58,036 nt of DNA from an uncultured Methanosarcinales archaeon (GTDB taxonomy: Archaea > Nanobdellota > Nanobdellia > Woesearchaeales > JAGVZT01). Below are positions 10,193-56,906 of this stretch, piece by piece. Position 1 is the stretch's first letter. Each line of letters starts with the position of its first letter. The notes beneath the pieces were generated by a model. The model was given only the letters and a program-made list of their open reading frames with translations, did no database searches and was not told where the DNA came from. Made by a program: the position numbers and the translations under genes. The stretch spans positions 1 to 58,036 of the forward strand of contig CAYQPU010000005.1 of assembly GCA_964419615.1 (NCBI GenBank), read 5' to 3'.

Positions 10193-10255
10193 ATGGCAAA
10201 ACAAATCAAATATCAAGTTCAAGTTTGTTTAGCTAATGCTTTTTTTAATAATTGA
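10193..10255 (+). CDS. Putative Asn-sensing leader peptide MAKQIKYQVQVCLANAFFNN* (20 aa)
   Basis: Manual translation: ends AAT AAT TGA upstream of asnA-asnS; parallels the Ser and Met leaders. Confidence 0.65.
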   Translation: MAKQIKYQVQVCLANAFFNN

Positions 10256-16404: not shown

Positions 16405-17403
16405 ATGAAAAAGAATCAATTAAAAAAAGAAATTAAAGACAGACCAGGATTAATCAGATACGGTGGAGAACTAGAAATTGATTTATTCAACATGTCAGAA
16501 TACCCTGTCGGCTCAATTGGTTGGGAAAATGATATTGGGTTGTTCTGCTGCCAATCATTGGCTCAGAGAGTATTAGACGCACATGAGGAGTGGTATGACA
16601 AGTATGGAGATTCAGAACTATTTTGTGAAGCATATCTTGCTCAGTTATGCTTGAGACTTGAAGAAAAGGATCTTGAGCCTGCATTAATCATATCTGCACA
16701 TGATGTCCATTTATTTATGAAACTAACAAAAGGATCCCATGAAGGTAAATATGTACATTTACAAGCTTATCCTGGATTCACAAACTTAAAAGAAGACAAG
16801 ATTTTAATTGAAGCTACAATTAAAAGTGAACTTAGAGAAAATGCTGATTGTCAAGTTACTTTATGGAATAAAGAATTTTCTTTCAAAGGTTATGAAAAGA
16901 TTATAGAATTAATAGGAATTGGTATTGCAAGGTATGCCTTGGAACCAATAAGGAATCTCTTTATTGAAAACCATTTTGAAGCACTGCCACAAAAAGCAAA
17001 AAAATGTATTGAAAGTTTTGATGAAATGGTTATTAGTGGAGACTTTGACTGGGAGTACCAAAGTCAGGTCAGAGAAATTAGAAGTTTATTTTCAGAAGAA
17101 CAGTTTAATGCATTACCTGCTCAAGCAAAAGCTTGTTTTCATGCTGTTGATGTTATTGAGGCTGAAACTGGTTACTATGGAGATTATAATTATCATTTTA
17201 AAATTGGACAAGTAGGTTATCCTGGAGATCCAACTCCAGTTGGAAAAGCTGCATATTTCATTGCTGAATCACTAGATACCACAGTTAAGTTTATTGACTT
17301 TACAACAGCAAGCTTTGCAAAACAGTTAGATCCTTTGACAGTATATCTTGCTTTTCTACCAATATGGAATCAAGTGGATGAAAATGGTAAAGCTCCTAAT
17401 TGA
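16405..17403 (+). CDS. Hypothetical acidic protein (332 aa)
   Basis: Long ORF; no motif recognised. Confidence 0.75.
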   Translation: MKKNQLKKEIKDRPGLIRYGGELEIDLFNMSEYPVGSIGWENDIGLFCCQSLAQRVLDAHEEWYDKYGDSELFCEAYLAQLCLRLEEKDLEPALIISAHDVHLFMKLTKGSHEGKYVHLQAYPGFTNLKEDKILIEATIKSELRENADCQVTLWNKEFSFKGYEKIIELIGIGIARYALEPIRNLFIENHFEALPQKAKKCIESFDEMVISGDFDWEYQSQVREIRSLFSEEQFNALPAQAKACFHAVDVIEAETGYYGDYNYHFKIGQVGYPGDPTPVGKAAYFIAESLDTTVKFIDFTTASFAKQLDPLTVYLAFLPIWNQVDENGKAPN

Positions 17404-17507
17404 ATTTACAAACAATGAGATTAGAATAACAAATAATTATTTTCTGTGATCATTTACATCCTTTTTTCATTGTAATTTATTTATACTCACATTACTTTCT
17501 AAATTAT

Positions 17508-18026
17508 ATGTCATATGATATTAATCCCAAAAACCTTGTAATCAAAATTGCTGAGGGTATTACATTAAAAGAAGCTAGAACTTTGATTAACAATGGGTTA
17601 TATGCTCAACACAATATGCAAGAGATCACAATTGAAGATGATAAAAATGAGAAAGCACTTTATGTGATTGCTTTATATGAAGATAAGATTATAACTTCAG
17701 GTAGATTGTGTTTAAGTCCTCCAGAAGATAAGATTGAACAAAGTGGACTATGGGAAGAAGTTAATAAAGAAGAATGCCAAGGAAGAGTAGCTATGTCTAG
17801 AGGGATTGTTACATTAGAAGATTACTGGGGCTGTGGGATTGGAGAAGAAGTCACATTAAAAAGAGAGGAGATTGCAAGATCACATGAACATCTGGTCATC
17901 CTAGCTTTAATTAGAGACCCAGCAAAGAAACTTTACAATAATTTAGGTTATGCATTTCTAAAAAAAGACTATCATCCTGCCAATGAACTAATAGGAGTTA
18001 GAGATTTTGTCTTTAAGCATTTATAA
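17508..18026 (+). CDS. GNAT-family acetyltransferase
   Basis: VTLEDYWGCGIG motif A; LYNNLGY motif B. Confidence 0.75.
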   Translation: MSYDINPKNLVIKIAEGITLKEARTLINNGLYAQHNMQEITIEDDKNEKALYVIALYEDKIITSGRLCLSPPEDKIEQSGLWEEVNKEECQGRVAMSRGIVTLEDYWGCGIGEEVTLKREEIARSHEHLVILALIRDPAKKLYNNLGYAFLKKDYHPANELIGVRDFVFKHL

Positions 18027-18151
18027 TAGAAAATTCAACAAAATAAGAACAAATCAAAAGGTAGTTTCCTATAGTCCATAAGACAATTTTATTACATTTG
18101 TTTTTATCAAATAAACCACACCAACCTACCTTAAAAATAGAATATACAAAA

Positions 18152-19348
18152 TTACCTACTTGTAACTATCTCAACAACATCTCCATAGTTTAATGTTTTG
18201 TCTTTAGAAACAGGAAGCTTTGTTTTCATATCAATTGCTTTGATAAATTTGTCACCAATTTCTGTATGGATCTTATAGGCAAATCCCTTTGGAGTAATGT
18301 CTTTAGGTACAAGTAAACAATCTGGTAGAACATTTCCATCTTTATCTGTTAGTTTGTTTGTGGCAACAGGAAATACAGCAATATACTCCAACATATCAAA
18401 CACTGCTTTGTTTAATACATCTTGCACACCAGTTGTTCCATATTTTTGAAGAATGTTTTCTTTAATAAACTGTAAAGCTTTCAATTGTTGTTCATTCAAG
18501 CCAGATTCATTAATAACTTTAAAACTATCTTCTCCTGGAATGTATTTGATCAATTCTTTTTTTGCTGCTTCTCTTAGTGCAAGTTCTGATTCTGCGCTGC
18601 AAGGAACAATAGTATAATCTGGAAATTCTTTTTTTAGTTTTTTAAGGTTTTCTTCTGCTCCTTTCATATCAGCTTTGTTTGCAGCTATAATCATTCTTTT
18701 TGATATTCTTCTAAGCTCAGATGCAAATGCTTTTAGATCATCTACCGTCCATTCATGAATGTTTTTTGAAAAGTTTTGTTTTTCTAATGCAGATTTGACC
18801 ATGTTCAGATCAATCTTTAATCCTGAAAACTGTTTAACAATTGCTTCTTCAACTTTGGCTTTTTCCTGCTGAGTTTTTCTGGCAAATCTTTCCCAGTTTT
18901 TCATTAATAATCCAAAAAACCACATATCTATTTCTTGTTCTAAGAATTTTATATCTTCTGCAGGATCATAAGTTCCAACAGGAACATTTTCTCCTTTTTC
19001 ATTAGTTGATCCTGATATATCAATTACGTGGATTAAAACATCAGCTTGGCTTAGATCATCTAAGAATTGATTTCCCATTCCTTTTCCTAAATGTGCGCCA
19101 GGAACAAGACCAGCAACATCTAATAAATCTATTGCAACAAACCTATTAGAATCAAGACAATAACCTGTTTTTGGCTGACATTTTGTATTAAATTCTGTTT
19201 CCACACATTTGACTTTAACAAACCCACAACCATGATTAGGCTTAATTGTAACAAATGGTCTGTTAAATATCTCTACTTCTGCTAGAGTTGAAGCTTTAAA
19301 TAAAGTAGATTTCCCAACATTAGTCTTCCCAACAACACCAATTAGCAT
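18152..19348 (-). CDS. ychF: Obg-family YchF/OLA1 ATPase/GTPase with TGS domain
   Basis: GKTNVGKST, PFVTIKPN, DVAGLVPGAHLGKGMGNQFLD, NKAD, AYKIHT. Confidence 0.93.
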   Translation of the reverse strand: MLIGVVGKTNVGKSTLFKASTLAEVEIFNRPFVTIKPNHGCGFVKVKCVETEFNTKCQPKTGYCLDSNRFVAIDLLDVAGLVPGAHLGKGMGNQFLDDLSQADVLIHVIDISGSTNEKGENVPVGTYDPAEDIKFLEQEIDMWFFGLLMKNWERFARKTQQEKAKVEEAIVKQFSGLKIDLNMVKSALEKQNFSKNIHEWTVDDLKAFASELRRISKRMIIAANKADMKGAEENLKKLKKEFPDYTIVPCSAESELALREAAKKELIKYIPGEDSFKVINESGLNEQQLKALQFIKENILQKYGTTGVQDVLNKAVFDMLEYIAVFPVATNKLTDKDGNVLPDCLLVPKDITPKGFAYKIHTEIGDKFIKAIDMKTKLPVSKDKTLNYGDVVEIVTSR

Positions 19349-19934: not shown

Positions 19935-20330
19935 TTACTGGTAATTTGGTTGCTCAGCAAATTCAAGTTTTCTGAACCCTATTTTATTTCTTAACCAACT
20001 CTCGACTGGTTTAGAATCATATTCCTGGAAAATGTCATCAATAAACTCTCTTGGACCATATGCACTAACAGGCATGCCAAATTGTTGGAGAACTTGTAAT
20101 GCAACGTGACGAACAAAGTCTTCTTTGCCTAGAAACATAAGATTTACATCTGTAAAATCTAGCATTCTTTGACATTCTAAGTCAGGAAATCTATGAGCTA
20201 TACTCTCGGTTACATCAACATATTTTTGGTATTCATCTGATGTTATGCCAAAAGCGCTCAAAATACCACCTAAAAACCCATGATTAAGAGGACATGTTAA
20301 CATAACTGCTTCGTAATCCTTGTTTGTCAT
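19935..20330 (-). CDS. Hypothetical protein, tandem paralog B
   Basis: Aligns with 19382..19780. Confidence 0.8.
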   Translation of the reverse strand: MTNKDYEAVMLTCPLNHGFLGGILSAFGITSDEYQKYVDVTESIAHRFPDLECQRMLDFTDVNLMFLGKEDFVRHVALQVLQQFGMPVSAYGPREFIDDIFQEYDSKPVESWLRNKIGFRKLEFAEQPNYQ

Positions 20331-20416
20331 ATTTATCAGAAAACAACTAAAACTTATAAAACTTATGAAAAAAGACTATCCATAAAGGGTCATTTCTGTT
20401 TTTTCACCAAAAAATA

Positions 20417-20424
20417 TATATAAA
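20417..20424 (+). promoter_or_regulatory. TATA box TATATAAA for the Ser leader-serS transcript
   Basis: Ends 20 nt upstream of the leader ATG at 20445. Confidence 0.6.
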
Positions 20425-20444
20425 CTAATTCAAATCCATTGATT

Positions 20445-20492
20445 ATGAATATATACATGAATCAAAGCTCAAGTTCTAGTCAATCTAGCTAA
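20445..20492 (+). CDS. Putative Ser-sensing leader peptide MNIYMNQSSSSSQSS* (15 aa)
   Basis: Manual translation: 7 of the last 8 codons are Ser (AGC TCA AGT TCT AGT caa TCT AGC); directly upstream of serS. Confidence 0.85.
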   Translation: MNIYMNQSSSSSQSS

Positions 20493-20510
20493 GACTAGAT
20501 TCATTGTTTT
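20482..20510 (+). terminator. Attenuator-like hairpin AATCTAG-ctaaga-CTAGATT over the leader stop codon, followed by CATTG and a T-tract
   Basis: Seen directly; function inferred. Confidence 0.55.
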
Positions 20511-20551
20511 TCTCAAAAAATTTATATAAGATTATAACGGAGGGATAAAAT

Positions 20552-21829
20552 ATGCTAGATATAAAATTTGTCAGGGAAAATCCTGATAAGGTAAAAGAGA
20601 ATATTAAGAAAAAATTCCAAGAAGACAAACTTCCATTAGTTGATAAACTGCTAAAAGCAGATGTTGATTATAGAGCTGTTTTAAAGGAATCAGAGAACTT
20701 AAGACACGAACGAAATAAAATTACTGCAAAGATTAGTGAACTTAAAAAACAAGGTAAAAATGCAGCAGAATTACTTGCACAAGCCAAAGAGATTCCAGAT
20801 AAAATCAAGAACCTTGAAGTAAAAAGAGATGAGCTTAAGGCAGAGATCAAAGATTATCTATATACAATTCCAAATATGATTCATGAATCTGTGCCTACTG
20901 GCAAGAATGATAAAGAAAATGTTGAAATTCAAAGAATCGGTGAACCAAAAAAGTTTGATTTTGAAGTGAAAAGTCATGTTGAGATTGCAGAAAATTTAGG
21001 GATGGCAGATTTTACAACTTCTGGGGAGATTTCAGGTAATGGTTTTTACATTCTAAAAGGTAACCTAGGACTGTTGAATATGGCTTTGATTAACTATTCA
21101 AGAGACTACATGGTAAAACAAGGTTATTTGTATGTCGAACCTCCTTTGATGATTAGGAAAAAGGTATTGACAGGTGTTTATTCAAATGAAGAGATTGATC
21201 AAATGGCCTATAAGTTAGATGGTGAAGATCTTTATCTAATTGCAACTTCTGAACATCCCATGATTGGTATGTATATTAACAAGACTCTTGATAAAAAAGA
21301 GCTGCCTGTTAAGATCACAGGATATAGTGCTTGTTTTAGAAGAGAAATTGGCAGCCATGGTATTGATGAAAAAGGACTCTATAGAACGCATCAGTTTCAC
21401 AAACAAGAAATGATTGTAATTTGTGAACCTGAAGATTCATACAAATTCTATGATGAGATGCTTGAACATTCAATTAATGTGTTCAAGGGTTTAGAAATTC
21501 CTATAAGAATTTTAGAGTGTTGTTCTGGTGACCTTGCTGACCTTAAAGCTAAAAGCTGTGATCTTGAAGCATGGTCTCCAAGGCAAAATAAATATTTTGA
21601 AATTACATCACTAACAAATATGGAAGGTTCTCAAGCCAGAAGACTTAAGATTAAAATCCAAGGCAAAGATGGCAAGTATTACGCACATACCTTGAATAAT
21701 ACTGTTATCGCCACCTCCAGAGCAATGGTTGCAATCTTAGAGAATTTCCAAAATAAAGATGGTTCAGTGACAATTCCAAAGGCCCTTAGACCTTATATGA
21801 ACGGACTTGAAAAACTAGAAAAGATGTAA
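20552..21829 (+). CDS. serS: Serine-tRNA ligase
   Basis: MLDIKFVRENP, coiled-coil arm, LIATSEHP, FRREIG, HQFHKQE, HTLNNT; SD GGAGGG at 20539. Confidence 0.96.
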   Translation: MLDIKFVRENPDKVKENIKKKFQEDKLPLVDKLLKADVDYRAVLKESENLRHERNKITAKISELKKQGKNAAELLAQAKEIPDKIKNLEVKRDELKAEIKDYLYTIPNMIHESVPTGKNDKENVEIQRIGEPKKFDFEVKSHVEIAENLGMADFTTSGEISGNGFYILKGNLGLLNMALINYSRDYMVKQGYLYVEPPLMIRKKVLTGVYSNEEIDQMAYKLDGEDLYLIATSEHPMIGMYINKTLDKKELPVKITGYSACFRREIGSHGIDEKGLYRTHQFHKQEMIVICEPEDSYKFYDEMLEHSINVFKGLEIPIRILECCSGDLADLKAKSCDLEAWSPRQNKYFEITSLTNMEGSQARRLKIKIQGKDGKYYAHTLNNTVIATSRAMVAILENFQNKDGSVTIPKALRPYMNGLEKLEKM

Positions 21830-26808: not shown

Positions 26809-26868
26809 ATGAAATCAAACCATAGCTTAAAAATGATGACTTCTATGCTAGCTATGCGAATGCGGTAA
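26809..26868 (+). CDS. Putative Met-sensing leader peptide MKSNHSLKMMTSMLAMRMR* (19 aa)
   Basis: Manual translation: 5 internal Met codons in the last 11 codons; directly upstream of metG. Confidence 0.85.
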   Translation: MKSNHSLKMMTSMLAMRMR

Positions 26869-26924: not shown

Positions 26925-28991
26925 ATGACAAAAAAACTAATCACAAGCGCCCTACCATATGCTAATGGAAGCATACATATAGGACATTTAGTAGAGTATA
27001 TCCAGACTGATATATTTGTAAGATTTTTAAAATTAAAAGGAGAAGATGCGATTTATTGTTGTGCTGATGATACTCACGGAACACCTATTGAGATCAATGC
27101 TGCAAAGCAAGGCGTGAAACCAGAAGAGTTTATTGCAAAGTTTTTCAAAGAGCATTTGAGAGACTTTAAAAAATTCCATATTGAATTTGACTCATACTAT
27201 ACAACAAATAGTCCTGAAAATAAAAAATATGTTGAGTTAATTTATAAAAGACTCAAAGATAAAGGACTTATTTATACAAAAGATCTTGAGCTTACTTATT
27301 GTGAGAACTGCAAGAGATTTTTACCAGATAGATATGTTAGGGGTACTTGTCCTAATTGTAAAGCAGAGGATCAATATGGAGATGTTTGTGAAAATTGTAA
27401 TACTGCTTACAAAACAACTGATTTACTAAATCCAAAATGTTCAATTTGTAAAAGCACACCAATAAAAAGGACTTCTAAACATTATTTTTTCAAACTAAGT
27501 TCTTATTCTGAAAAATTAAGAGATTGGTTAAATAACAATGAAGAGCTTCAGCCAGAAGTTAGAAACCAAGTCTTAGAATGGATTAATAAAGGTCTTGAAG
27601 ATTGGAATATTAGTAGGGATCCACCTTATTTCGGATTTAAGATTCCAGGAGAAGATGACAAATACTTTTATGTTTGGTTAGATGCCCCAATTGGATATAT
27701 TGCAAGTACTGCTAATTATTGTAAAGATAAATCAATTACTGCTGAAGATTACTGGCAAAAACCAGGCTCAGAAATTATTCATTTTATTGGTAAGGATATT
27801 ATTTATTTTCATCTTTTATTTTGGCCTGCAGTTTTAATGGGGGCTGATTTTAATCTGCCAAAGAATGTTTTGGTGCATGGCTTTCTGACTGTAAACAAAC
27901 AAAAGATGTCAAAGTCAAGAGGAACTTTCCTAACAGCAGAGGAGTTTGGAGAGCTTGCTAAACCTGAGTACCTTAGGTTCTACTATGCAGCTAATTTGGC
28001 TAGAAAAATGTCTGATGTAGATCTTGATTTGGATGATTTTAGAGAGAAAATCAATAATGAATTAGTGGCAAATGTAGCTAATTTCTTTTATAGAGTTTTA
28101 AGCTATTGCAATAAAACTTTTGACTCAAAAATAATTCCAGCAGAAAAAGAATTCTTAGATCAATTCGATTATAGTGAGATTATTAAAGATTATGACAATG
28201 TTGAATTTAGAAGTGCATTAAAAAATATTCTAAAGGTTAGCAGCCAAGGAAATAAGTATTTCCAAGATAATGAACCATGGGCTCTAATCAAAACTGATAA
28301 ACAAAAAACTCATCAGATTGTAAGTAATTGTGTTAACCTTGTGAAGGATATTAATACCCTGCTAAAACCAGTGTTACCTGAGTTTACAAAAGAAATTGAA
28401 AAACAATTAAACATAGGTGAGTTAAAAACAGATTCCTTGGGGAAAAACATAGGTCAGCACAAAATCAATAAAAGTGAAATTATTTTAGAGAAGATTGACA
28501 AAATAGAACTGGACGTTTCAGATCCATTTTCAAATCTTGATTTAAGGGTTGCCAAGGTTATCAATGTTGAGTCTCATCCAGATGCTGAAAAACTTTACAT
28601 AATGCAAATTGATTTAGGTGATGAACAAAGAACTATTGTTAGTGGACTTAGACCTTTTTATTCAGAAGATGAACTTACTGAGAAAAATATAGTGGTTGTA
28701 AAGAATTTAAAACCTGCAAAACTTAAAGGTGTTGAAAGTAAAGGCATGCTTTTAGCCGCTGATACCAAAGAAGGTGCAAAATTAGTTTTTGCTTCTAAAA
28801 GCAAACCAGGAGATGTTGTTAGTGTTGAAGGTATCAAACCAAATCCAAAAGATCAAGTAACAATAGAGGCGTTTAAGAAAATCAAGCTTTTTGCAGAGAA
28901 TGAAACAGCAACTTACAACAAAAAACAACTTAAGACTTCAAAAGAAAATGTGAGTGCTCCAGGAGTAAAACAAAAGACAAGAATTATTTAG
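26925..28991 (+). CDS. metG: Methionine-tRNA ligase with C-terminal tRNA-binding OB domain
   Basis: ALPYANGSIHIGH, Zn knuckles, YVWLDAPIGY, KMSKS, DLRVAKV; SD GGAGGT at 26912. Confidence 0.96.
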   Translation: MTKKLITSALPYANGSIHIGHLVEYIQTDIFVRFLKLKGEDAIYCCADDTHGTPIEINAAKQGVKPEEFIAKFFKEHLRDFKKFHIEFDSYYTTNSPENKKYVELIYKRLKDKGLIYTKDLELTYCENCKRFLPDRYVRGTCPNCKAEDQYGDVCENCNTAYKTTDLLNPKCSICKSTPIKRTSKHYFFKLSSYSEKLRDWLNNNEELQPEVRNQVLEWINKGLEDWNISRDPPYFGFKIPGEDDKYFYVWLDAPIGYIASTANYCKDKSITAEDYWQKPGSEIIHFIGKDIIYFHLLFWPAVLMGADFNLPKNVLVHGFLTVNKQKMSKSRGTFLTAEEFGELAKPEYLRFYYAANLARKMSDVDLDLDDFREKINNELVANVANFFYRVLSYCNKTFDSKIIPAEKEFLDQFDYSEIIKDYDNVEFRSALKNILKVSSQGNKYFQDNEPWALIKTDKQKTHQIVSNCVNLVKDINTLLKPVLPEFTKEIEKQLNIGELKTDSLGKNIGQHKINKSEIILEKIDKIELDVSDPFSNLDLRVAKVINVESHPDAEKLYIMQIDLGDEQRTIVSGLRPFYSEDELTEKNIVVVKNLKPAKLKGVESKGMLLAADTKEGAKLVFASKSKPGDVVSVEGIKPNPKDQVTIEAFKKIKLFAENETATYNKKQLKTSKENVSAPGVKQKTRII

Positions 28992-56834: not shown

Positions 56835-56906
56835 GGGGACATAGCTTAATTGGCAGAGTGGCTGGCTCCAGACCAGCAGGTCCCAGTTCGAGGCTGGGTG
56901 TTCCCA
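56835..56906 (+). tRNA. tRNA-Trp(CCA) copy 1, intronless
   Basis: GGGGACA/TGTTCCC-A acceptor; GCTGG-CTCCAGA-CCAGC anticodon arm; CCCAG-TTCGAGG-CTGGG T-arm. Confidence 0.88.

Follow-up and report, generated by a model that had tools for sequence, protein, structure and literature searches.

A serine-rich, predicted leaderless mini-ORF upstream of archaeal serS, a likely charged-tRNA sensor within a set of cognate leaders

The seryl-tRNA synthetase gene (serS) of a woesearchaeal (DPANN) genome was found to be preceded by a short Ser-rich ORF, which is probably a leader peptide that acts in cis to signal how much charged tRNA-Ser is available and forms part of a genome-wide set of such leaders. 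The evidence consists of the ORF itself, its unique enrichment in Ser, the spacing of its promoter, a layout and a sequence motif in common with other leaders, sister leaders that match the synthetases encoded behind them, and the conservation of these sisters in related organisms. For the leader family as a whole, the reading of the mini-ORFs as ribosome-based sensors is well supported by these comparisons, and for the serS leader it is likely.

The host genome (1.48 Mb in 64 contigs, 33.5% GC) is archaeal by its 16S rRNA, and the relatives of its serS are labeled Woesearchaeota, Nanoarchaeota or Nanobdellota. The 16S-23S spacer holds a tRNA of 126 nt (L001 3288-3413), which presumably contains an intron. 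serS is located at positions 20552..21829 of the analyzed stretch of 58,036 nt (hereafter, the window), on the forward strand, as are all features of the serS, metG and asnA-asnS loci given below. It encodes a bacterial type seryl-tRNA synthetase of 425 aa with the Pfam domains Seryl_tRNA_N and tRNA-synt_2b. The leader mini-ORF (20445..20492) contains 15 codons, ATG (20445-47) AAT ATA TAC ATG AAT CAA AGC TCA AGT TCT AGT CAA TCT AGC, followed by TAA (20490-92), and is predicted to be translated leaderless. Its sensor stretch (20466..20489) has seven Ser codons, AGC TCA AGT TCT AGT and, after one CAA, TCT AGC. Ser therefore occupies 7 of the 15 residues and 7 of the final 8 sense codons (four AGY and three TCN). 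A Ser-rich ORF starting at ATG 20445, with seven Ser codons from both codon boxes, was described in the original prediction, and re-derivation of the reading frame gave the same result. The tRNA-Ser genes of this genome include at least those with GCU and UGA anticodons. The whole serS leader is 107 nt long. A BLAST search with positions 20400-20551 against the whole genome returned the self-match alone, and an origin of the leader from a repeat or mobile element was dropped on this basis. Rfam covariance models applied to the window detected one tRNA (56835-56906) and nothing else; no T-box and no curated leader family were found in it.

Upstream of the mini-ORF is a putative promoter, P1 (20409..20422), composed of an A-rich, BRE-like stretch and the TATA box TATATATA (20415-20422), 30 nt before the ATG. 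A second promoter-like element, P2 (20515..20528), composed of an A-rich stretch and TTTATATA (20521-28), is located 31 nt before the serS ATG. It is followed by an SD-like GGAGGG (20539..20544), 13 nt before the start codon, which would be transcribed from P1 only. The divergent gene at 19935-20330 has its own TATA box near 20353-60. In a set of 1444 long ORFs, the start positions of the TATA motif TTTAWAWA have a sharp peak at -30/-31 relative to the ATG (89 of the 409 motif matches at -30 and 42 at -31), and GGAGG has a peak at -12/-13 from the start codon. Both a TATA box at -30 and an SD were present in 13 genes, including serS, metG, leuS and proS, as compared with 56 expected (p = 1.6e-15), so that the two signals are otherwise mutually exclusive. 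The TATA spacing indicates that this genome uses mostly leaderless mRNAs, a prediction from promoter geometry. A TATA box ~30 nt upstream was found for 5.1% of background mini-ORFs, versus every leader ORF of our set.

Because the TATA box of the serS mini-ORF is exactly at -30, the modal leaderless spacing, the mini-ORF is predicted to be leaderless and to start at the 5' end of its transcript. Likewise, the position of the P2 TATA box at -31 suggests that serS has its own promoter besides P1 and probably also its own leaderless transcript. serS orthologues have a TATA box 25-45 nt upstream, and four relatives retain a P2-like element upstream of metG. The SD at 20539-44 points to a long transcript and the TATA box at 20521-28 to an extra, separate one. 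serS, metG and, after correction of its start, valS have the same downstream arrangement, in which the TATA-like box is located at -31 to -35 and the SD at -13. In valS (contig C10, L033; likewise in its G001 and G003 orthologues) the first in-frame ATG or TTG is inside the SD (…GGAGGT…). Translation probably begins at the ATG located 15 nt further downstream, in which case automatic annotation would add 5 residues.

Our initial reading, that an archaeal serS with its own TATA box would make the mini-ORF a chance ORF, was abandoned after an unbiased genome scan. Every ATG-started mini-ORF with a length of 8-45 codons located before a long ORF (1220 in all) was ranked by enrichment for any single residue, and the serS mini-ORF was the first of them. 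Synthetase genes were also located by Pfam models, and the last eight residues of their upstream mini-ORFs were scored for the enzyme's own amino acid. An upstream mini-ORF with at least seven Ser in its last eight residues was found for serS alone among 1425 genes. The mini-ORF in front of thrS (a 634-aa gene) has Thr at 6 of 8 positions and ends with six Thr and one Ala, that of valS (799 aa) contains five consecutive Val, and that of ileS (1057 aa) is Ile-rich; these three synthetases were identified by NCBIfam, all above the curated cut-offs. The respective level of cognate enrichment was reached by thrS alone and by valS alone, whereas ileS was one of 3 and metG one of 11 such genes, again out of 1425. 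When all other synthetases were included at their own p-values (seven of which equal 1), the Fisher combined p was 2e-6, and none of 20000 label permutations reached four cognate matches, the observed count. The synthetases for Leu, Arg, Glu, Ala, Phe, Tyr, Pro, Gly, His, Asp, Lys and Cys had no cognate leader upstream. The lysyl-tRNA synthetase is a class II enzyme fused to a C-terminal HDIG domain (917 aa; contig C1 64056-66809, L039).

The metG leader (26809..26868) is a Met-rich mini-ORF of 19 codons with a TATA box at -30. It is followed by the motif discussed below (26874-83), a proximal TATA box (26891-98), an SD (26911-16) and metG itself (26925-28991). A weaker case is the asnA-asnS leader (10193..10255), in which a 20-codon mini-ORF ends with Asn-Asn and is followed by a hairpin (10259-71) and then CATTG; the Asn score of this leader was reached by 23 of the 1425 genes, asnA included. 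Three further loci, two genes for HExxH proteins and one for an archaeal PEP carboxylase (ppc), were found via the motif. The HExxH proteins are paralogs of 103 and 110 aa that have no Pfam family, and both are encoded behind mini-ORFs ending with Arg-Arg-Arg and followed by TTCATTGTT. At one of these loci (L075; contig C44 4049-4117 and 4189-4521) the next gene is that for argininosuccinate synthase (argG operon); the other locus is L074 (contig C12 9487-9543 and 9622-9933). The ppc mini-ORF (L076; contig C12 16855-16902, gene at about 16960-18438) has 15 codons, is rich in Ile, Asn, Thr and Asp, and is followed by a stop-codon hairpin and CTCATTGTTTTTCT. It is possible that this leader acts as an Asp-family sensor that gauges the supply of oxaloacetate. 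Unlike its G001 counterpart, the ileS leader (contig C7 12772-12832, L034) has no motif, no TATA-like box and no SD; instead, a 7-bp hairpin ends 2 nt before the ATG, merely 19 nt past the mini-ORF stop, a geometry that would suit stall-dependent unmasking or termination-reinitiation.

The post-stop motif of the serS leader, TTCATTGTTT (20500..20509), occurs as an identical 10-mer after the stop codons of the thrS and metG leaders, with near-copies after those of the valS, ppc and argG-operon leaders. It is also found 3' of the thrS and valS leaders in relatives. In most leaders the motif is 6-10 nt past the stop, whereas a variable 8 to 23 nt separate it from the proximal TATA box; it is therefore tied to the end of the mini-ORF. 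The T5 tract at 20507..20511 is a candidate archaeal oligo-T termination site. Tracts of T5 or longer were present after 9 of 24 leader stops versus 106 of 715 in the background (p = 0.007), the share of T in the 35 nt past leader stops was 0.415 versus 0.336 (p = 0.003), and oligo-T (T5+) runs are enriched just 3' of ordinary genes in this genome. No T tract was found in the metG, ileS and asnA leaders. Three other ideas concerning the motif were discarded. One was that CATTG marks gene ends in general as a terminator motif, but it is not enriched after stop codons (58 observed versus 77 expected). Another was a helix between the AUG at the 5' terminus and the CAU within the motif, which was not significant in a swap test (p = 0.24). 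The third was a conserved second ORF initiated at the UUG within the motif; in serS and metG it stops immediately ahead of the start codon, but its frames and stops were inconsistent in thrS, valS, argG and asnA.

Folding of the serS leader yielded both of the overlapping hairpins that had been proposed as alternatives with a common 3' arm. In hairpin B (20475..20499), which is the minimum-free-energy fold as well as the centroid, positions 20475-81 pair with 20493-99 and the 5' arm lies within the Ser codons (-7.7 kcal/mol). In hairpin A (20482..20501), positions 20482-88 pair with 20495-501 and the stop codon is in the loop (-5.7 kcal/mol). The two are mutually incompatible, the 3' arm at 20493-20501 being common to both, and CATTGTTTTT comes 3' of them. 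As compared with shuffled sequences, the fold energy of the leader was ordinary, with z-scores of -0.31 (whole leader) and -1.15 (core). Most leaders of the set have a small hairpin over or just past the stop codon. The stop region of serS falls in the 8th percentile of 779 background mini-ORF stops, and fold energy around leader stops in general was lower than at these background stops (p = 8e-5). Stop-region structure in relatives was also more stable than at background mini-ORF stops (p = 0.002), although this p-value is inflated by the kinship of the relatives, as are all p-values across them. The original prediction further held that the position of the ribosome selects the fold. The overlapping helices on which this idea was based do exist, and a switch between them is possible, but their energies are ordinary and the design is not the classical four-segment one. 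A stalled ribosome would block hairpins A and B alike, and a separate antiterminator helix was looked for in the serS leader and not found; a simple occlusion model fits better.

Comparison with other genomes gave contrasting pictures for serS and for its sister leaders. The Ser-rich ORF, which had been expected upstream of serS orthologues, was found at none of 188 serS loci (29 from related genomes, 80 from species representatives and 79 from metagenomes; best protein identity 75-79%, about a third of them bacterial), and the absence of such ORFs had been named beforehand as a refuting result. In contrast, Thr runs ending with Ala and a stop were found upstream of thrS in the same-genus genome G001, in G003 of the same family and in G098 of another family. 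Val runs were found upstream of valS in three genomes (G001, G003 and G047), Ile runs upstream of ileS in five (G001, G002, G003, G007 and G148), and Met-rich ORFs upstream of metG in three (G001, G002 and G004). None of the claims made here depends on the unpublished genomes G006, G118, G127 and G188. Nearly all of these leaders have a TATA box ~30 nt before the mini-ORF, and their peptides are unrelated in sequence except for the cognate run. In the thrS leaders the Thr codons vary at third positions only, and a five-pair hairpin is 100% kept, with one compensatory change from A-U to U-A; with n = 4, this is not significant by itself. The third-position variation and the TATA box at -30 are indirect evidence for translation of the leader ORFs. 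A long-range helix between the thrS mini-ORF and the SD had no visible counterpart in G001 (inspected by eye, not folded). Among the 10 matches to the exact motif listed for each of G001, G003 and G098, the thrS leaders alone combine the motif with a cognate ORF. In other woesearchaeal families, a different conserved mini-ORF is located upstream of thrS (L048, L049, L050 and L055), with a hydrophobic tail, …IFLL, and then one or two Thr or Ser codons, followed by TTCATTGTTTCT in L049; it may be an arrest-type or a minimal Thr sensor.

The serS of this genome is only 46% identical to that of a genome of the same genus (G001 locus L029) and 73-75% identical to those of Woesearchaeota of other families, whereas valS, metG and ileS are 80-85% identical to their G001 counterparts; the nearest bacterial serS sequences (Clostridia) are 50-55% identical. 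Thus, the gene looks as if it was replaced by transfer within the order, and its leader would be young. The proposal that the Ser-rich leader lets the ribosome report seryl-tRNA supply draws strong support from the sister leaders for Thr, Val, Ile, Met and Arg, which have the same layout, and from the recurrence of the Thr, Val, Ile and Met leaders in relatives; it is weakened by the lack of conservation of the serS leader itself. Since the latter is one of at least five leaders for the gene's own amino acid, the ribosome probably gauges charged tRNA at serS as well.

A mechanism consistent with these data would be as follows. The P1 transcript (TATA box at 20415-22) would start at or beside ATG 20445 and the mini-ORF would be translated leaderless. 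When charged tRNA-Ser is scarce, the ribosome would stall on the seven Ser codons (20466-89), its footprint covering the 5' arms of the hairpins (20475-88); the hairpin together with TTCATTGTTT and T5 could then not act, and the polymerase would read on into serS, producing an RNA that carries the SD at 20539-44. When charged tRNA-Ser is plentiful, the ribosome would finish and leave, the hairpin would form and most P1 transcripts would end near 20507-11. P2 (TATA box at 20521-28) would supply a basal leaderless serS mRNA in either state. In this scheme we infer that the ORF is translated, that it shares one RNA with serS, in which direction serS responds and by which effector step. The design is coherent, in that P2 would provide basal leaderless expression of an essential gene and read-through from P1 would add SD-bearing mRNA.

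With regard to the effector step, and given that the leader is a sensor, we mildly favor termination over masking of the SD. The 5' arm of the hairpin is in or beside the cognate run and T-rich tracts occur past the stop, as would suit termination. On the other hand, the terminator candidate of serS consists of a weak hairpin (either A or B) and T5, its z-scores are not significant, a scan for bacterial-type terminators did not call this site, and three of the sister leaders have no T tract. Archaeal termination is not known to require hairpins.

It is less likely, but conceivable, that the same sensor has a translational output, i.e., that the serS SD is masked and a stalled ribosome remodels the leader to free the SD or the start codon, with no termination involved. 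In both the minimum-free-energy and the centroid folds, positions 20504-13 pair with the SD region (20539-50), leaving the SD unpaired with a probability of 0.09, and in the ppc and argG leaders, too, the SD is paired with a U/C-rich stretch that follows CATTG. Moreover, these genes carry an SD, unlike most promoter-proximal genes in this genome, and the ileS leader has, in place of a T tract, just the hairpin that ends 2 nt before the ATG. A bacterial precedent is provided by the poly-Cys ORFs of mycobacteria (bioRxiv 10.1101/834739). However, pairing of a purine-rich SD with a U-rich tract is nearly the default outcome in AT-rich RNA. Folding with ribosome-footprint constraints, the check that the original prediction had called for, did not free the serS SD. 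Its accessibility was 0.09 without a ribosome, 0.08 and 0.07 with footprints placed on the first and the last cognate codon, and 0.10 with a footprint on the stop codon. Averaged over 24 leaders, it was 0.40 free versus 0.45 stalled. Unmasking of the SD by a stalled ribosome was thus not seen in these constrained partition-function folds, which are thermodynamic modeling only.

We consider it improbable that the mini-ORF arose by chance in an AT-rich spacer that has CTAG-containing repeats, and is inert in front of a serS gene expressed solely, and leaderless, from its proximal promoter. No such ORF was found at the 188 serS loci compared, the folding of the leader is ordinary and the P2 TATA box at -31 has the modal leaderless spacing, all as this explanation would have it. 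However, it does not fit the observation that a Ser enrichment found once in 1425 genes occurs before the one cognate gene, nor the TATA box exactly at -30 of the mini-ORF (5% in the background), nor the exact 10-mer that the thrS and metG leaders have at a like distance from the stop. An SD would also be needless for a purely leaderless gene, and CTAG is under-represented in the genome (2981 observed versus 4580 expected). Finally, P1 has its own TATA box with a T5 tract about 65 nt downstream, and the palindromic arms TCTAGT and ACTAGA can be read as DNA sites, but it is very improbable that P1 yields a separate RNA of ~65 nt (20445 to T5) acting as a small RNA or micro-peptide mRNA, or that the CTAG palindromes are an operator for the divergent promoters, as the palindrome has no second copy elsewhere in the genome, the sister-leader peptides are unrelated save for the cognate run, and the cognate match to the downstream gene would be left without explanation.

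Regulation by leader peptides is a textbook bacterial mechanism, and trpL, hisL, thrL, leuL, ilvL and E. coli pheM-pheST are examples of leader-peptide transcription attenuators. The serS leader resembles pheM-pheST in that a short upstream ORF is packed with cognate codons and the downstream gene is that for a synthetase. It also resembles bacterial attenuators in having a hairpin and a U-rich tract between leader ORF and gene, stalling being the proposed gauge of charged tRNA. Unlike in these systems, the host of serS is an archaeon with TBP/TFB-type promoters and the leader ORF is predicted to be leaderless, without its own SD. In place of the 1:2/2:3/3:4 design, serS has one small stop-codon hairpin or two overlapping versions of it. 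Further differences are that TTCATTGTTT is common to leaders for different amino acids, that a second promoter-like TATA box is located between the serS leader and the gene, and that no Rfam leader family matches. T-box RNAs, which precede aminoacyl-tRNA synthetase genes of Firmicutes, bind tRNA directly and need no translation. The physiological role would be the same, i.e., synthetase expression increases when the cognate tRNA is uncharged, but the serS leader is just 107 nt long and, again, without an Rfam match.

Bacterial leader-peptide attenuators have been surveyed comparatively (PMC1262725). A close parallel is found in the Cys ribulon of mycobacteria, where a ribosome stalled on leaderless poly-Cys short ORFs blocks a duplex that masks the ribosome-binding site (bioRxiv 10.1101/834739). 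As in that system, leaderless sensory mini-ORFs with a run of one codon class are located at the transcript 5' end (inferred in our case), several loci rely on one type of sensor, and the downstream gene has its own ribosome-binding site. The Cys ribulon, however, is bacterial, responds to Cys only and controls metabolic operons, whereas here at least five amino acids are involved, mostly before synthetases, and our in silico footprint test did not reproduce the unmasking of the ribosome-binding site. Attenuators of Corynebacterium (ilvB, trp, leu) also have leaderless leader peptides (PMC3890552, PMC11857589). They share with the serS leader a peptide translated without an SD from the first codon of the transcript and the presence of attenuator hairpins after it, and differ in being bacterial, in serving biosynthetic operons and in their three-hairpin terminator/antiterminator designs.

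In a full-text literature search for leader-peptide attenuation in Archaea, no published case was found, and the cases returned were bacterial only. The principle is known from bacteria, and what is new is the domain, the leaderless TATA-driven layout, the common motif and the breadth within one small genome. On balance, we lean toward the view that, in this genome and to a varying degree in the order to which it belongs, ribosomes serve as the sensors of a network built of leaderless cognate mini-ORFs with a common module of a stop hairpin and TTCATTGTTT. Such a network would cover the synthetases for Ser, Thr, Val, Ile, Met and perhaps Asn, the argG operon and PEP carboxylase. It would amount to ribosome-mediated attenuation carried out on archaeal transcription or translation machinery, and would be able to spread to newly acquired genes such as serS.

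In Archaea, transcription and translation are coupled, the polymerase is eukaryote-like, and termination occurs at oligo-T independently of hairpins. With such a polymerase and such termination, how a stalled ribosome controls the polymerase or a downstream start is a mechanistic question, for which this genome offers a compact and testable set of at least five leaders with different amino acids and one common motif. The serS leader, apparently recent and located before a gene that seems to have been horizontally replaced, is in addition a natural experiment on the origin of such sensors. Reduced DPANN genomes have few transcription factors, and it is possible that they regulate their synthetases and the few amino-acid genes that they have retained in this way.
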